From the NCBI GenBank assembly GCA_951406725.2, contig OX597829.1, forward strand, positions 8,308,001 through 8,372,000: 64,000 nucleotides of DNA. Direction: 5' to 3'. This DNA comes from Octopus vulgaris (lineage: Eukaryota). Within the stretch, counting starts at the first letter, position 1, and every line of letters begins with the position of its first letter. Below are positions 4,823 through 62,235 of the stretch, in pieces. Made by a program: the position numbers and the translations under genes. The notes under the pieces were generated by a model. That model saw nothing but the letters and a program-made list of their open reading frames with translations, did no database searches and was not told the DNA's origin.

Positions 4823-4826
4823 GATT

Positions 4827-5021
4827 CGCCATGATAGATCGCTAGCCCCTAAATCTTTTTCTTTTTTCTCTCCCTGTTTATTTCTGTGTTCCTTTCTGTC
4901 GAGGAGCGTAGGCTCGAAACGTAAAAGACTTTCTCGCTTTCCGGGCATTATAAACTAATACAGCTGTTTGTTGTTTACACACCCGTCTTCGTCTTTTGTT
5001 TTTTTTGTTGTAAATTCTCAC
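4827..5021 (+). mobile_element. ~200 bp TA-flanked element with variant hammerhead motif (family H, copy 1)
   Basis: CTTT-CTGTCGAG-GAGCGTAGGCTC-GAAA-CG-TA-AAAG at 4892-4927; homologous to four other copies in the window. Confidence 0.8.
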
Positions 5022-5098
5022 TATATATACACACACATATATGTATACATATATACATACATATATACACATACATACATACATGCATACACTCATAT

Positions 5099-14134: not shown

Positions 14135-14690
14135 TAGTTGAATGAATTATCCTAGTATGGATAATTCGGTTAACCGATACCCGGGTAGCAAATTCACGTC
14201 AGAAAAACACGGTTGAAGCTACATGCCAAGGGCAGAGATCACGTGCTTTCGTGTGGAAATTTGTGTTTTTTTTAATAGAAATAAATGAAAGAATGGAGTT
14301 GAACGACGATTTAACATAATTCCTTTATTCGCGACATATGTTTCGAAGACTGCATATTCCTAATTTTGAAGGAAAAAGGGGTGCATTATGCCGCCTTCTC
14401 ATCAGGAAAGACTTATGTCAGCATCATGATGAACAAAAACTTTTAGATGACTGCCCACACGGGGTCCATAGCGATAAATGGATTTATCGCTATGGACTCC
14501 GTGTGGGCAGTCATCTAAAAGTTTTTGTTCATCATGATGATGACATAAGTTCCTTGTCTTTCCTGATGAGAAGGCGGCATAATGCACCCCTTATTCCTTC
14601 AAAATTAGGAATATGCAGTCTTCGAAACATATGTCGAGAATAAAGGAATTTTGTTAAATCGTCGTTCAACTCCATTCTTTCATTTATTTG
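14133..14690 (-). mobile_element. Fold-back hairpin element (~200 bp arms, ~145 bp tail on the left) within (TA)n
   Basis: Palindrome ~14278-14689 centred near 14480 (GCGATAAATGGATTTATCGC), with few mismatches and one small indel; a hammerhead motif in each arm. Confidence 0.9.
14559..14640 (+). ncRNA. Minimal hammerhead ribozyme motif (mirror copy on minus strand at ~14331-14410)
   Basis: TTTC-CTGATGA-GAAGGC..(branched loop)..GTCTTC-GAAA-CATATG-TC-GAGA, followed by AATAAA. Core intact, GUC triplet. Confidence 0.8.
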
Positions 14691-19109: not shown

Positions 19110-19319
19110 TGCTGTCCGGCATTTGCCTTGATAGATCGCTAGACACTACACATTCTTTATTTCATCACCTTGTTCCTTCCTGTGTTTCTTTCTGTGGAAG
19201 AGCGTAGGCTCCAAACGTTAAAGACTTTTTCACTTCCCGAGCGTTAAACTAATACATCTGTTTGTTTGTCTATACAACCTGTCTTCGTCTTTCGTTTTTT
19301 GTTTTTGTGAATTTTCCCT
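19110..19319 (+). mobile_element. Family H, copy 2
   Basis: CTTT-CTGTGGAA-GAGCGTAGGCTC-CAAA-CG-TT-AAAG (GAAA mutated); same 3' end as copy 1. Confidence 0.8.
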
Positions 19320-19320
19320 A

Positions 19321-19740
19321 TCTCTATATTATAATTCTGAAATGCGAAAAGTTTGTTTGTTTGTTTGTCTGGTTTTAGCATTGAGAACGGGTTAAAGGCC
19401 ACTAGATCCCGTCGGATTGATTCCAAAATTTACAGGGATATGTAAAATGAGGTGAGGATGCGACTAAGAAATCCCTATCTTAAAAGGTGTCGTTGCTAGG
19501 GCCAAAAACGCACTTTGACAAGTCTACTCTCATTCTTTTATGTATCTGTCTTCCTCCATCACTCACTCTCTTTCTTCCCTTCCCATCACATTCTATCTAT
19601 AACGTCGTTTCACAGCGTATACCTCCCTTCACTTTCTGTTTATAACGTCGTTTCACAGCGTCCTATATCTCCCCCCTTCCCCGCCTTTGACAGCGCTTTC
19701 ACACTCTCTCTCTACGCCTGTTTGCATTCATAGAGAGAAT
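19321..19740 (+). mobile_element. Probable non-autonomous Helitron 5' part
   Basis: Begins TCTCTATATTATAA followed by (GTTT)n, like the Helitron starts at 21870 and 55779; no 3' end seen. Confidence 0.4.
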
Positions 19741-27214: not shown

Positions 27215-28665
27215 ATGTTTGACATTTATTTTGTATTTGTACAAGTTGACTCCAAGTCTCACCCAGAGACCTCAAGAAACAAGCTAGCAGTTCATGTTGG
27301 TGTTATGCCTAGGGTGTCATATATTTGGCCTTGTACATATTATTGTTCTAGAGAATGTTTAAGAAAACATAAGAAAAGTATGAGTTTGTTGTCATACCTG
27401 GGATTTCATAGACAGTACTTTACGTAGGATATGGGCAATTCCCATGAGCACTATCTTTTGAATTTCTACCATTTTTGGGGCTTCCTGGTATCTGAGCCAG
27501 GTAGCAATCAGCCCCTTTTGCTATCAATTCTAGGGCACCTATGACAACAGGTATTGTTTTAATCTTCAGGTTCCACATTTTGCCAATTTCTATTTCAAGG
27601 TCTTTATACTTGCTCAGTTTTTGGTATGTCTTGATAGATACATCTATGTCGATTGGGACAGTCATATGAATGAGGAAGCATGATTTCAATATAATGTCTG
27701 GCCTATTCGCGTCTATCTTTCTCTCAGTTTGAATGGTGAAGTTCCAGAGGAGTGAGATGTGGTCATTTTCAAGCACTGGAAGTAGTTTGTGTTCCCACCA
27801 GTTGTTATCATTGGGCAGGTCTAAGTTTTTGCAAATTACCCAGTGAATATATTGTGCTGCTCTATCATGCCTGTTGAAATACTCTGTAGGCACAAGAAGA
27901 CTGCACATGGAGACAACATGATCAATGGTTTCATTTTGTTTTTGACATACACAATATGTTGGGCTACTGCCGTTCTTTAATATGTTGGCCTGGTAGTTTC
28001 ATGTAGGTAGGCATAGATCTTGGGCTGCTATGATAAACCCTTCTATTTCTGATTTTAAACCTGAATACACGTATTATTGACGAGTGTGGGCTTTGTCAAC
28101 ATCGGCATTATTAAATCTCTTTAGGTATTTGCTATTGAGAGATTTTTCTTGCCATTTATCAGTCAGAATATCTAAGGCAGCAGTTTTAGCACGGGTTTTC
28201 ATGTGATTAGCTTTTTCTGCGCTTGTTTCTTGTATGCCTAATTCCGGAATTTGTTGTATTTGGTATTCATTATATATTCCTTTGCCTGTTTTGTTACTGA
28301 GTATGATGCTTTCTTGTTTTCATGTTTTGAGACAAGTTTTAACATCCAGTCCTTAGAGCTTTTCAGGTAGGTGTCTAGGCCATTCGTAGCAATCTTCATT
28401 GTTAATTCCAGTTGTAAAAAGTCCACGGCCTCCCGCTTAGGGTGGTGCATTCTATGCATTGTCAACAGTTTCCTTATTTTTCTGTCAAGATTACATATTT
28501 TAGTAATAATTGACCAGTTAATGATATTGAGACTGCAAGACACGATCGGTATGGCTAAAGCATTGATCGCTTCGATATTGTTTCTTGTAGTCAGCTCTGT
28601 CTTGAGTATTGCTCTTACTCTGCGATAACATACTCTTCTGATCCTTTCCTTCATCATCGAATATT
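27215..28665 (-). mobile_element. 5'-truncated, decayed R4/Dong-clade LINE (post-RT region, CCHC knuckle, RLE) ending in TAA repeats
   Basis: ORFs 28238-28657 (RKIRKLLTMHRMHHPK) and 27420-27908 (RHD..IHW..C, RPDII, KLSKYKDL, IPVVIGAL); CQKQNETIDHVVSMC knuckle; frameshifts present. Confidence 0.85.
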
Positions 28666-28765
28666 TGATTATTCTTCTTCTTCTTCTTCTTCTTCTTCTT
28701 CTTCTTCTTCTTCTTCTTCTTCTTCTTCTTCTTCTTCTTCTTCTTCTTCTTCTTCTTCTTCTTCT

Positions 28766-28797
<32 letters not shown>

Positions 28798-28819
28798 CTC
28801 TTCTTACTATTATTATTAT

Positions 28820-29015
28820 TGGCGAGCCGGCAGAATCGTTAGCACGCCAAGGGAAAATGCTTAGCGTCTATACGTTCTGAGTTCAAATTCCTTCGAGGTT
28901 CTGTTTGCCTTTCATTCCTTTCAGGGTGAATAGAATGAGTACCAGTCGAATATTGGCGTCTATGCAATCGACTTACCTTCTACCCGAAATTTCTGGCCTC
29001 GTGCCAATTTGAAAT
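28820..29015 (+). mobile_element. SINE family B, diverged
   Basis: Similar to 26987-27200. Confidence 0.75.
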
Positions 29016-30393: not shown

Positions 30394-30396
<3 letters not shown>

Positions 30397-30603
30397 CCAT
30401 GTTGATTCGTTAGCTACTGCACGCATTTTTTTTCTCTCCTTCTTTCTGTGTTTTTCTCTCTCTGTGTATCTTTCTGTTGAAGAGCGTAGGCTCGAAACGT
30501 TAAAGACTTGTTTTATTTATATTTCCTGAGCGCCATACTAATACAATTGTTCGTTTGTTTTCCACCTGCCTTCGTCTTTTGTTTATTTTCATAAAGTTTC
30601 CCG
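30394..30603 (+). mobile_element. Family H, copy 3
   Basis: TCTTT-CTGTTGAA-GAGCGTAGGCTC-GAAA-CG-TT-AAAGA at 30469-30506; (TA)n on both sides. Confidence 0.85.
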
Positions 30604-30642
<39 letters not shown>

Positions 30643-32254: not shown

Positions 32255-32258
<4 letters not shown>

Positions 32259-32443
32259 GGAAAGTTTACGAAAAAAACAAAAGACGAAGACAGGAGGTGT
32301 ACAAAACAAATAGATGTATTAGTATAACGCTCAGGAATAGAAAAAGTCTTTTACGTTTCGAGCCTACGCACTTCTACAGAAAGCGACACAGAAAAAACAA
32401 GGAGAGAAAAAATGTGTGTAGTGGCTAACGATCTATCATGGCT
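32255..32443 (-). mobile_element. Family H, copy 4
   Basis: Minus CTTT-CTGTAGAA-GTGCGTAGGCTC-GAAA-CG-TA-AAAG; (TA)n on both sides. Confidence 0.85.
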
Positions 32444-32444
32444 A

Positions 32445-36465: not shown

Positions 36466-37010
36466 TTAATATTTGGTAGACATGCCCTTTGCATTTTTCA
36501 ATGCAAGGACCCTATTAGGCATGCTACTGTTCTGAAGTCGAATATTCTCTTGAGGAATTTCTTGCCAAGTTTCATGCAGTGATCTCAAAAGACTTGGCAT
36601 TGAAGATGCTTTCTTGTTCTTTCTATGAAGTGTCCTGTCCATTATGTCCCAGAGGTGATCAATAAGGTTCAAATCTGGTGACTGGATTGGCCATGGAAGC
36701 TTTTTAATGTCATTCTCAACCAACAAATCTTGAGTCATTTTAACCGTGTGACAAGGAACCCCATCTTCCATAAATAAAGAGTCTTCTTTAACCATTTCAC
36801 TACTGGAGAAGATTGGAAGGGGTACTTTCTGTAATAAGGACACATATTTATCTGGGTTTATGTTTCCCTCACACTCCACCAGCTCCAAATTGCTCCTCAG
36901 ACCATCACAAAATAGTTGCCGTGTTTCATTGTTGGTTTCAATCTTTCCATATCAAATTCTTGATCACAGAGTCTCCAGACTCCAGAATTTGCGTAGGTGT
37001 TATTCTAAAC
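36466..37010 (-). mobile_element. Tc1-like transposase pseudogene (DDE region)
   Basis: VWR..PTMKHGNYFVMV*GA upstream; FMEDGVPCHT, WPIQSPDLNLIDHLW, SMPNRVLAL..AKGMSTKY. Confidence 0.88.
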
Positions 37011-37109: not shown

Positions 37110-37650
37110 AAGAGAAGGAAAAATAAGAAGGAATATAGGTTGTGTGAAAGTAGTAAGGTGTTAAATGACTTAAAATTGGCACCTAGTGGATTCTAGCAGT
37201 GATTGGGACAGTTTTTTAATGAATTCTGGGGAATCTCTCGAGTGTATCATTTTTAATATTTGCGTGTGTATTTGTGTTATTCGAAGGCCGAGGTGGATAT
37301 GTCGTTTGTCGTAGACGCGTTCAGAAGGGGCTGTATTTTGCAATAAAGAGAGTTTCTTTACTAATTCGTTGGCTCTAGGATGTATTGGTAGAGGGGAAAT
37401 GTCGATGTGTTGGCTGAATGCTATTTTTCTGTTTTGAGGAATTTTTATCTGGGATCTGTGCAGGGCCATTCGTTTACGTAAACTATTTTTTGTTTGGCCT
37501 ATGTATTGCTCTTGACACCCAGAGCAGGTTAGTGCGTATATCAGGTTCTCCGAAGTACATGTGAATTTGCTTTCCACTGTGAAACGTTGTCCCTGTTTGA
37601 AGGAGAACTCTGATCCCTCAATTAGATGATCGCATATCCCACAATTGGGA
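37110..37650 (-). mobile_element. Penelope-like (Neptune-type) element 3' fragment with GIY-YIG endonuclease
   Basis: CGIC..FTCTSENLIYALTCSGCQEQYIGQTKNSLRKRMALHRSQI, then frameshifted FP.YQ..QRISKETLFIAKYSP.LN; 5' end abuts a (TA)n-rich tract. Confidence 0.88.
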
Positions 37651-37714
37651 TATATACATATATACATAAATACATGTATACATACATACATTTAAATATA
37701 CCTATATTTATATA

Positions 37715-48760: not shown

Positions 48761-49462
48761 GATGGCTGCCCCCTTGTTATCGAGTATGGCCATTGCACGA
48801 AGCTTAACTATTATTGGTACTGTGATCGAATGTGATTTTTTAGCCGAGCCAAAGATCTACAATGTCTTGTACAGAATTGGCAGCTAAAACCTTTACCGGT
48901 AATAGCCAGCTGTAGTTGTAACTGGGCTTCATGTATCTTTGCATGTCGTCTAAGTCCTCCTGCCGAATTACACTCTCTTCCACATGCCCGACAGATATGA
49001 TTAGTATGGTGTGTTACACCACCACCAGTTGCCAGGTTGTCACTCATCTGTCTCGTTTTATGACTACGAAGATGACTCATGAGTCCAGCTTTACTGAGGC
49101 AGAGTCTTGCACAGACACTGCATGTCAGCATCATAGGAAGACCCTTCCCATCTGGAAGTGTAACAGCGATGTCCTTCCTGACATTCCTCCTTACTTTCTC
49201 ATGCGCAACTCGAGATTTCTCAAAAGTAGCTGTTCCCTCGTGCACAACTTTCTCCACCTGCTACGATCAATAGCTATGCCCTCCCATGTGTCAGGAGAGA
49301 TGCAAGCATCTCTTAAGGAAGCCTTCAGCAAGTCCTTATACCTCTTTTGGTTTATGTGGAGGTCGTTCTCCTTTAGCTAACTCTCCATAATAGAGTTGTT
49401 TTGGCATCCTTGAATCCTTCATCCTGACCTGATGACCACTCCATCTGAGACTTTGCTTTAAC
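48761..49462 (-). mobile_element. RTE LINE 3' segment with C-terminal C2H2 zinc fingers
   Basis: LRWSGHQVRMKDSRMPKQLYYGEL..KRYKDLLKASL..WEGIAIDRSRWR, then three Cx2Cx12Hx3H/Q motifs. Confidence 0.9.
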
Positions 49463-51615
49463 ACTATGTGCTATACTGATGACGAAAAAATTTCTTTCTA
49501 CCATGCTTTGGAGGGCATTATAAGAAATATCCCTCGGGCAGACAAAGTCATCGTACTGGGTGACTTTAATGCTAGAGTGGGTAGGGATTTTAACACACGG
49601 ACTGTAATTGGAAAGCATGGGGTGGGGAAGTGTAATAGTAATGGCATGCTTTTGCTGCAGATGTGTGAGGAGCTGAGTCTGTGTGTTACCAATACCATGT
49701 TTCAACGAAAGAATAAGTTTAAGACCACATGGATGCACACAGCATCTAAAGAATGGCATATTCTGGATTACATCCTTGTTAGGGTGCGTGACAGACAGGA
49801 TGTGCAGTGTGTTCGTGTTCTTCGTGGAGCTGAGTGTTGGACTGACCACCGCCTAGTACGTGCAAAAGTGAAATTAGTCACAAAACATAAAATCCGAACT
49901 GCAGGGATTACCCTGCCTAAAAGACTGAATGTTGATCGTCTTAGGTGTAATAGTGTGAAGAGAACTTTACGAGAGGAAATGAATGCTGCAGATATTGGGG
50001 AGGATTGGCCGATCCTTAAAAAGTTAGTTTATGATATAGGCAAGAAAGTTCTGGGATTGATACAAAGAAAGCATCAAGTTTGGTTTAAAGAAAATGAACA
50101 TATAGATGATTTACTGGCTGATAAAAGACGTACTTTGTCATGCTATTTGTCAGCAAAGCCACAGGAAAGGGAAGTGTTGCATTGGGAACTCAAGGATGTA
50201 AAATCACGTGTGAGGCAAAGACTCTCTCAGTTGAGGGATACGTGGTGGTGTAAGAGGGCTGATGAGATACAGGTGGCGACGGATTCTAGTAACACAAAGA
50301 TGTTGTATGGTCTTTTGCGAGAAGTTTATGGACTGACGTCTTCTCTGATGACACTACTTCGATGCAGGGATGGTAAAGAACTTCTTCGTGATTCACAAGG
50401 AATTCTGCGAAGGTGGCACGAACACTTTGATGAACTTTTGAATCAGCAGTCTGTAGTTAGTGAGGATGTTTTCAATCTCATCCCTGGATTACCTGTGAAG
50501 GCAGCACTTGCAGAACCTCCAAAGCTGGAAGAAGTTGCAGTGGCTGTCTCAAGGTTAAATAATGCGAAGTCTCCGTGTATGGATGACATACATGCGGAGT
50601 TGTTACAGCATGATGGTGAGAAACTTCTGTAGAAACTTCACTCTTTGTTTGGTAAGGTATGGATTAGCGAATCTGTACCTGAGGAATGGAGAGATACAGT
50701 AATGGTGGTCTTGTATAAGGGAAAGGGCAACAGGAATGATTATGGTAATTATAGGAGAGTATCATTGCTTTCTGTCGTAGGAAAGATTTTATGCAGGATA
50801 CTTCTGGATCGTCTGCTGAAACACGTTGCAGATTGTGTTCTTCCACAAAAGTCAATCTGGCTTTCGTGTGGGACGTGGCACTGTTGATATGATCTTTTCA
50901 GCTAGACAGCTTCAGGAGAAGTGTGTGGAACAAGATCTGGATTTGTATCAAGTTTTTGTCGATCTGACAAAAGCCTTTGATACCGTTAATAGAAAATCAT
51001 TTTGGGAAGTCCTCCAGAAACTTGGGTGTCCTGAAAATTCCTTGCTTTGGTTGGGTCTTTTCATGAAGACATGAAGGGTAGGGTTAATGTTAGAGGGAAA
51101 ATGTCGGTGCCCATTTCAATACAAAATGGAGTGAAACAAGGGAATATTCTGGCACCGACCCTATTTGCCATATATTTTGCGATGGGGTTCTGTATTGCAT
51201 TCAGAAACTGCAGCATGGTGTTTACATCCATTATCGAACCTCTGTCAGCATATTTAATATCAGGCGCTTTGCTGCAAAAACAAAGGTATTTACCTCTATC
51301 ATAAGAGACCTTTGGTATGTAGATAATTGTGAGCTAGTAGCACACACAGAGATTGATATGCAACACATTTTGAATGCATTCTCTGATGCTTGCACTGCCT
51401 TAGGATTGGCAGTCAATCTCAAGAAAACTGTTGTCATGTACCAACCTGCCCCTGGTAAGCAGTATAGTGTACCAAAGATCAATGTGTATGGTAAACGGCT
51501 TGATGCAGTTGATCAGTTTGTCTACCTGGGAAGCACTATTAATAGATATAGCAATTTGGATGATGAAATTCCATTTAGAATTAGGATAGCAAGTGTTGCT
51601 TTTGGAAGGCTAGAA
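49463..51615 (+). pseudogene. RTE LINE ORF (APE endonuclease plus reverse transcriptase), disrupted, inverted relative to its 3' segment
   Basis: VLGDFNARVG, HILDYILV, TDHRLV (APE); YRRVSLLS, QSGFR, FVDLTKAFDTV, GVKQGNILAP, YVDN in place of YADD, FVYLGS (RT); stops and frameshifts. Confidence 0.93.
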
Positions 51616-51626
51616 ATGCTCCATCA

Positions 51627-51700
<74 letters not shown>

Positions 51701-51711
51701 CACATACCTAT

Positions 51712-51895
51712 GTTCTTTTACTTGTTTCAGTCATTTTGACTGTGACCATGCTGGAGCACCGCCTTTTGGTCGAAGATATCGACCCCTGGACTTATTCTTT
51801 GTAAGCTTGGTACTTATTCTATCTGCTAAATTACGGGGACGTAAACGCACCAACATCGGTTGTCAAGATCGGTGGACAAACACATAAACATACAC

Positions 51896-61668: not shown

Positions 61669-61679
61669 TATATTTAGTT

Positions 61680-61845
61680 CAAAGTTTACAGAAAACAAAA
61701 GACGAAACAGGTGGCGGAACAAGAATCAGGTGTATTAGTTTGGCGCGCGGGAAAAATGGGAAAACCTTTGACGCTTCGAACCTATGCTCTTCAACGGAAA
61801 GGATTGAGAGGAAAAAAGGGAGTGAGAACCAAGCAAAAAAATATT
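61680..61845 (-). mobile_element. Family H, copy 5 (most diverged)
   Basis: Minus CCTTT-CCGTTGAA-GAGCATAGGTTC-GAAG-CG-TC-AAAGG. Confidence 0.7.
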
Positions 61846-61849
61846 CTCT

Positions 61850-62235
61850 TACGAACCCTAGATATGTTCACGTTTATCTCTGGATATTTACATTATGAAG
61901 GCTATAACCATATATTGGTTTACATAGCATTGCACCTAAAGACTTATGGACTAACATCTAAACTATCGGAAAGCTGAACTGTGAACTTTCATGATACTTT
62001 TTCTTTTTTTCCTTCTTTTCTTTATGCCTTTTCTCCAGTCTTTTATGTCACCATTTCCTTAATCTATGCCTTTCACATTTTCCGTGTTTGTCTCCGATGA
62101 CGGAATATCCCATATTTTGGGATATCCTAGAAACAGATGTAAGACTTTAAAATTTTTCCAATAATAATAACGTATAAGACTTGAGATTTTTGTCTTGTCT
62201 CAGAGTTTTTTGTCCTTTTTAACAATTATATATCC
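61850..62235 (+). mobile_element. Penelope-like 3' remnant with hammerhead motif at 62090-62145
   Basis: Decayed WIFTL*RL*PY.GL (compare the PLE C-terminal WI..L.TL.P.GLN); GTCT-CCGATGA-[ATATCCCA/TGGGATAT stem]-GAAA-CAGATG-TA-AGAC. Confidence 0.65.

Follow-up and report, generated by a model that had tools for sequence, protein, structure and literature searches.

The 64-kb window, by which we mean the whole stretch of octopus DNA analysed here, holds exactly five copies of one repeat family, found with E-values of 9e-63 to 3e-33 by a scan with a profile built from 30 genomic relatives and four of the window copies. Each carries a hammerhead-like motif, and all five cores lie where the earlier note had placed them, at 4896, 19192 and 30474 on the plus strand and at 32379 and 61797 on the minus strand. 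It is close to certain that the five copies are 5'-truncated end repeats (pseudo-LTRs, pLTRs) of a Penelope-like element.

4826..5022, plus strand: copy 1, 5'-truncated end repeat (pLTR plus tail) of a Penelope-like element, subfamily D
4892..4927, plus strand: copy 1 hammerhead; stem I 4892-4895/4924-4927, core from 4896, U6 at 4899, N7=C, predicted cut after 4923 (from the sequence, with the fold by analogy with the published consensus)
19110..19321, plus strand: copy 2, truncated end repeat, subfamily C
19188..19223, plus strand: copy 2 hammerhead; U6 at 19195, N7=G, predicted cut position after 19219
30394..30606, plus strand: copy 3, young truncated end repeat with (TA)n on both flanks
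30470..30505, plus strand: copy 3 hammerhead; U6 at 30477, N7=U, predicted cut after 30501
32258..32444, minus strand: copy 4, truncated end repeat flanked by (TA)n, subfamily A
32348..32383, minus strand: copy 4 hammerhead; U6 at 32376, N7=A, predicted cut after 32352
61676..61859, minus strand: copy 5, old decayed end repeat, subfamily E, 5' limit approximate
61766..61801, minus strand: copy 5 hammerhead; U6 at 61794, predicted cut position after 61770

The stem I (CUUU/AAAG) and four-pair stem II that had been ascribed to every copy do occur in all five, but the motif as a whole is intact only in copy 3, the other four being lesioned. In copy 1 the extra base is G, not A (4903), and stem II of copy 4 contains a U-U mismatch (32370). 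The hammerhead of copy 2 is predicted to be dead through loss of the catalytic G12 (C at 19212), as is that of copy 5 through its private U4C (61796) and A15.1G (61774) changes; the latter also has a G-U pair in stem II. Over 219 nt, copy 3 agrees at 99.1% with an intact element's pLTR, and its hammerhead has the same sequence as that of the intact elements. From copy 1 to copy 5, N7 is C, G, U, A and U, and H17 is A, U, U, A and C, never G, just as first reported. The U at N7 of copy 5 probably reflects CpG decay, because the majority base of its subfamily is C (16 C, 14 T and 1 A; n = 31). The nearest same-strand copy lies 11-29 kb away, and the window copies are therefore not tandem partners. 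A strict three-way-junction scan recovered two of the five non-A6 cores of the window and no canonical A6 core there.

Elsewhere in the window, a fragment of another GIY-YIG (Penelope-like) frame (37170-37691, minus strand) was 32% identical over 82 aa to the endonuclease region of the element described below, and a near-perfect 40-bp inverted repeat at 14430-14531 resembles a MITE hairpin, its match to a miRNA model being below threshold. Judging by their motifs, we take three decayed frames to resemble a restriction-like-endonuclease LINE (27420-28867, minus strand), an RTE-type LINE (49436-51804, plus strand) and a Tc1/mariner transposase (36466-36951, minus strand).

The long copies of the family have a GIY-YIG frame upstream of the hammerhead unit. 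A search with the GIY-YIG protein gave 150 scored matches, the query itself at 100% and the rest at 90-94% identity. In 20 stretches fetched from these matches, selected for long open frames, the unit lay downstream of the frame in all 20 and also upstream of it in 12, the tandem or partial-tandem arrangement that forms pseudo-LTRs. Between predicted cuts the element unit measures 4,478 bp, and at one locus (L124) its two repeats were 99.84% identical over 1,264 nt. The intact frame of 1,072 aa, whose first in-frame ATG lies ~700 nt after the predicted cut, matched RVT_1 above the cut-off (E = 4.6e-8) and GIY-YIG below it (E = 0.006) with the motif visible; a single frame thus joins a reverse transcriptase (RT) to a C-terminal GIY-YIG domain, as in endonuclease-containing Penelope-like elements. 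The translated frame also contains a cysteine linker, C-x4-C-x2-C. Linker and domain order suggest an element of Neptune type, a CX2-5CxxC linker before the endonuclease being described, in the part of the source available, as a Neptune trait common to Nematis (PMC8557442).

Head-to-tail 4.5-kb units with at least three hammerheads, more than 99.7% identical to L124, occur at G000:C6:117391700-117400900 (L127, L128), an array that would be the best candidate locus for a dimer in cis. These tandem units are coding and 4.5 kb long, not the non-coding, hammerhead-bearing tandem units of non-LTR retrozymes, and the short copies are solitary, with no head-to-tail arrays among 21 profile hits in 864 kb. 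At L008, L076/L077, L161 and L091:8336-8480, truncated copies lie in inverted pairs with a (TA)n spacer between them, in the layout that has been described for Penelope insertions.

Thirty sequences closely related to copy 4 had a constant 3' end, mostly followed by (TA)n, and seven of the 30 reached further upstream in common sequence. This end is fixed ~105-110 nt past the predicted cut, and recurs in contigs of four public runs with three organism labels; the family consists of 5'-truncated copies with a fixed 3' end, lying in AT-rich or microsatellite DNA. The 5' ends varied from ~30 to more than 650 nt upstream of the predicted cut among 78 copies, a set not gathered with a full-length query and with approximate, automatically called ends, and 35 of them fell between -81 and -120. 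The earlier note had proposed a ~200-bp unit-length element, which these data contradict: the 5' ends are not fixed, and the short copies are truncated ends of an autonomous 4.5-kb element. It had also seen both ends in common between copies 1, 3 and 4; the 3' end is indeed fixed, but the 5' likeness reflects the mode at -81 to -120 and not a unit. If the anole element is a guide, this mode may reflect the start of the transcript or the point at which the RT stops.

We considered 5' ends at the cut as a possible fossil of cleavage, using 41 incidental copies found by their downstream part alone. The whole hammerhead was spanned by 35 of these; no copy started from -41 to +4, four started at +5 to +11 and two at +28 to +30, and this small, underpowered sample neither shows nor excludes cleaved templates. 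The public-run contigs, whose RNA origin is only guessed and which have no bearing on expression or cleavage, vary at N7; none of the variants listed was at position 6, and no pile of loose ends at the predicted cut was found among those listed.

We searched the 2.8-Gb host genome with a 24-letter core-plus-stem-II pattern in which positions 6 and 7 were left open, and obtained 23,125 exact matches compared with 0 for the reversed control, so chance is excluded. A6 was present in 326 of these (1.4%) and C6 or G6 in 725, the first 100 listed being 91 C and 9 G; by subtraction, 22,074 (95.5%) have U6. In an 864-kb block around the window, the 21 profile hits comprised 19 of the U6 lineage and 2 of a sister family, and the block's 17 readable cores, which were not selected on the core, had U in 15 cases, C in one, G in one and A in none. 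Crude scaling from this one region gives roughly 60,000 copies genome-wide. At the fetched intact elements, U rather than the A of Penelope-like hammerheads stood at position 6 in all 31 distinct family hammerheads, one of 32 rows being a duplicate locus. Together with the 95.5% of exact matches, this establishes the proposed natural A6U variant as the true state of the family and not a product of decay. Because U6 is found in all young intact elements, the lineage must have been transposing recently with this base.

A hidden active A6 sub-lineage was sought and rejected, 30 loci selected for A6 being scattered over six U6 subfamilies. The relatives of one A6 copy had 20 U, 6 C and 3 A (n = 29) and formed no clade on a poorly resolved tree. 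A6 copies within the U6 lineage are mostly recurrent mutations. Two further candidate subfamilies were also dismissed: G8A, where the mutations were private and 27 of 29 copies kept G8, and U4C, a private mutation in a group whose majority base is U4. Subfamily F2 has an excess of C and A at position 6, and in an old subfamily (L342-L371; n = 29), possibly a transitional lineage, position 6 is U in 20 copies, C in six and A in three, while each of the other core positions varies in zero to three copies.

Position 6 is A in the sister families, where loop 2 has three bases and the outer stem I pair is swapped. The swap is compensatory, and the catalytic bases are kept. Several more distant singletons also have A6, and A6 is therefore probably the ancestral state, as judged from sequence comparison. 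One sister family (L173:4440-4680 and L282-L311) is young, with ~3% divergence and a similar (TA)n-flanked layout; its core is canonical, with A6, its loop 2 has three bases and the outer pair of its stem I is G-U or G-C. No autonomous partner of the A6 sister family was found near its copies. Three of 30 loci (L372:1420-1640, a locus also labelled L158; L373; L377) are chimeric, joining a sister-family upstream part to a U6-lineage downstream part. The junction lies in the 5' half of the hammerhead and not at the cut, which suggests template switching at the common motif.

To compare the motif with its surroundings, 318 distinct copies were grouped by their non-hammerhead sequence, giving eight subfamilies of the U6 lineage and two of the sister family, with 15 copies left ungrouped. 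Among the eight majority sequences of the U6 lineage, none of the 33 hammerhead positions other than 6, 7 and 17 changes, compared with 32 of 84 ungapped columns in the downstream flank (p = 4e-6, Fisher, with pattern-selected copies removed; indicative only, since majority sequences are related). Subfamilies C and D contributed four unselected copies each, and several other groups were gathered with motif-containing queries. N7 takes all four states among the majority sequences, as does one of the 84 flank columns, and H17 is A, U or C but never G. Between subfamilies, variation at both positions far exceeds that of their neighbours; the earlier note would have counted equal variation, together with a lack of cleavage, against its reading, and at the level on which selection acts the variation is not equal. 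Within them it can be stable or not: N7 is A in 71 and H17 is A in all 72 of the copies of subfamily A, and N7 flips between C and U in subfamily D. The bases C3, U4, G5, G8, A9, G12, A13, A14, A15.1 and U16.1 and a non-G at 17 are found in all eight majority sequences; among the window copies, 2 and 5 lack this set. The CpG bases of the motif are mutated in 19-44 of ~208 individual copies (9-21%), yet all majority sequences retain them. Loops 2 and 3 are also invariant among U6-lineage majority sequences, which fits plain sequence recognition. Two further invariant blocks (9 and 15 nt), found downstream of the predicted cut in all subfamily majority sequences, are candidate RT-binding or initiation signals.

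The fold proposed for the family, a minimal type I hammerhead, was borne out, with stems I and II around the core, a G10.1-C11.1 pair and an extra base after A9. In 11 hand-picked rows, 94% of the cells were paired and two stem I pairs changed on both sides, a level of covariation that was reached by one of 500 shuffles. A search of Rfam gave no hammerhead among the 150 matches listed of 262 (E<=1), the listed ones being simple-repeat miRNA noise.

Structure prediction gives a less favourable picture of the U6 core. G5-U6 is predicted to pair with A15.1-C15.2 in an inactive rod that excludes the active core, the pairing probability of U6 with A15.1 being 0.61-0.98 in seven of the eight majority sequences and 0.11 in the eighth; the rod is predicted to be weak in the oldest subfamily. 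Fold-stability z-scores of +1.0 to -1.9 were uninformative. In the active hammerhead fold, A14 and H17 are unpaired. The dimerisation through six-base AACGUU that had been suggested therefore reduces to a 4-bp ACGU helix; the six-base palindrome occurs only where H17 is U, and the four-base ACGU is common to all subfamilies. All majority sequences thus have a palindromic loop III that would allow a dimer helix. The dimer is possible without being the predicted minimum, as the hammerhead dimer is predicted to be 1.3-6.7 kcal/mol less stable than two monomers. For the A6 sister families the figure is worse still (8-11 kcal/mol), and other folds compete there as well, so that in models of this kind misfolding is no peculiarity of U6.

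The explanation we favour, to which we give an even chance of being right, is that the minimal type I hammerhead, with U6 in every subfamily covered, is a slow ribozyme, dependent on dimerisation and protein, in the end repeat of a Neptune-type Penelope-like element. By analogy with a studied relative, the endonuclease would nick AT-rich DNA, and reverse transcription would start inside the RNA, ~105-110 nt downstream of the cut, and run back across the uncut (or rejoined) hammerhead. The RT would often stop 80-120 nt further on, giving the common copies of 190-230 nt. Two hammerheads of a tandem transcript would pair through ACGU and cut after H17, and a unit RNA would be released or circularised. 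U6 would lower the rate of cleavage, and we propose that it is tolerated or favoured because the template must stay uncut for long enough to be copied. The cleavage of a natural A6C hammerhead suggests, by analogy, that position 6 tolerates change. Arguing against a ribozyme are, on the side of modelling and copy ends, the predicted U6 rod, the less stable predicted dimer and the lack of 5' ends at the cut, and, by analogy with other systems, the low activity of CUGA-turn mutants (PMC9901934) and the anole hammerhead mutants that still insert in vitro (PMC11167929).

Several of these points would be explained if the motif were hammerhead-derived but non-cutting, and had become, after A6U, a landmark for the RT/endonuclease or part of an internal promoter, with N7 and H17 as the positions that the binding partner ignores. 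We regard this as a real, though not a probable, alternative. It fits the predicted inactive rod closed by U6, the 35 of 41 incidental copies that span the cut site, the loops that are as invariant as the core and the low activity of CUGA-turn mutants, and it is in line with a hammerhead activity that is dispensable in vitro for the anole element and with Naiad elements that proliferate without canonical hammerheads (PMC8557442). What it leaves unexplained is why all five or more master-level changes in the 36 nt fall at two catalysis-free positions, for which the chance is ~3e-4 even with seven free, and why H17 avoids G. Nor is the rod the thing conserved, given its weakness in the oldest subfamily.

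It is rather unlikely, in our judgement, that A6U is a selected safety catch, in which a weak catalytic turn, with G5-U6 zipped on A15.1-C15.2, would keep the RNA uncut during reverse transcription and would be unlocked only by the dimer, the element's protein or Mn. Were this so, the octopus motif would be the first working natural U6 hammerhead on record, and would prove on evolutionary grounds that a slow, switchable ribozyme is selected for in Penelope elements and is no passenger. The invariance of the motif could also be an artefact of homogenisation, through template switching or gene conversion inside it, with U6 as a neutral hitch-hiker of a successful lineage; exchange there does happen, as the three chimeric loci joined at the 5' half of the hammerhead indicate, yet homogenisation should also erase the differences at N7 and H17, which are stable subfamily markers, and we consider this improbable. 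An independent ~200-bp non-autonomous unit of SINE or retrozyme kind with a small circular RNA, as the fixed 3' end, the 5'-end mode and the shortness of most copies might suggest, is very improbable and largely refuted by 5' ends that form a continuum into the RT frame, by the near-identity of copy 3 to the repeat of the intact element and by the lack of short-unit arrays in the 864-kb block.

The family bears on a wider question, being a natural experiment on whether Penelope-like hammerheads matter; it has been suggested that they may merely parasitise these elements (PMC8557442). A base counted as invariant has changed, every other catalytic base has been kept through at least eight subfamilies, and the sister families keep A6. 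If the ribozyme cuts, position 6 is relaxed in minimal dimer-type hammerheads and CUGANGA descriptors miss large families. If the motif does not cut, a dead ribozyme fold has been retained for some other role in the replication of the element.

Minimal hammerheads in Penelope pseudo-LTRs, with an extra base and a palindromic loop 3, were described by Cervera and de la Pena (2014), who gave the consensus CUGANGAH, found weak dimer cleavage with low activity in vitro and proposed cleavage as a dimer (PMC4209133). The octopus motif resembles these in its pseudo-LTR position, U-rich 5' side, stem I of 4-5 bp, extra base between 9 and 10.1, G10.1-C11.1 pair and palindromic 15.2-16.2, in having no stem III, and in its mostly solo truncated copies. 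The extra A, which had been put forward as a novelty, is already part of that consensus. Unlike the consensus, the octopus family has U at position 6 in its dominant, recently mobile lineage, and among the features published in the available text only A6U departs; the core variant reported there is U3-A8, and the three CUGU strings in supplementary file 2 of that paper are not at core positions. A CUGANGA descriptor would miss the octopus U6 family. Variants of PLE hammerheads are reportedly the subject of Lunse et al. 2017. A natural U6 hammerhead was not found in a literature search, in which that paper and the supplement of PMC9901934 are places that may list A6U; the A6U string is absent from the available part of PMC11014351, and the word ribozyme from the octopus repeat annotation (PMC13282606).

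For Neptune-clade elements, canonical hammerheads are described as universal in the accessible text of Craig et al. (2021; PMC8557442), whereas the octopus U6 family is not canonical. Like the octopus family, the hammerhead of phage Bcep176 has a natural change at core position 6, A6C, and it cleaves at <0.1 per minute in Mg and ~0.3 per minute in Mn (PMC3088659, PMC7151607); there the base is C, in a single phage example with full helices, whereas in octopus it is U, in tens of thousands of minimal dimer-type motifs. A scan of the full set of mutants gave low activity for each single change to the CUGA turn, A6U not being given separately in the text available (PMC9901934).

The closest functional comparison is PAc, a Poseidon element of the green anole (Frangieh et al. 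2024; PMC11167929), whose hammerhead cleaved only with its protein, whose insertion in vitro was not impaired by hammerhead mutants, and for which reverse transcription starts inside the RNA, with uncut RNA as the main template. PAc belongs to another clade, its frame begins inside the hammerhead and its cleavage has been shown, whereas that of the octopus hammerhead is predicted. The two elements are alike in that 3' ends are fixed at a point downstream of the hammerhead, targets are AT-rich, the template is uncut RNA (for octopus, by analogy) and read ends at the cut are lacking. Both the octopus element and its motif are of a known kind, the new part being one fixed core substitution with good evolutionary support.
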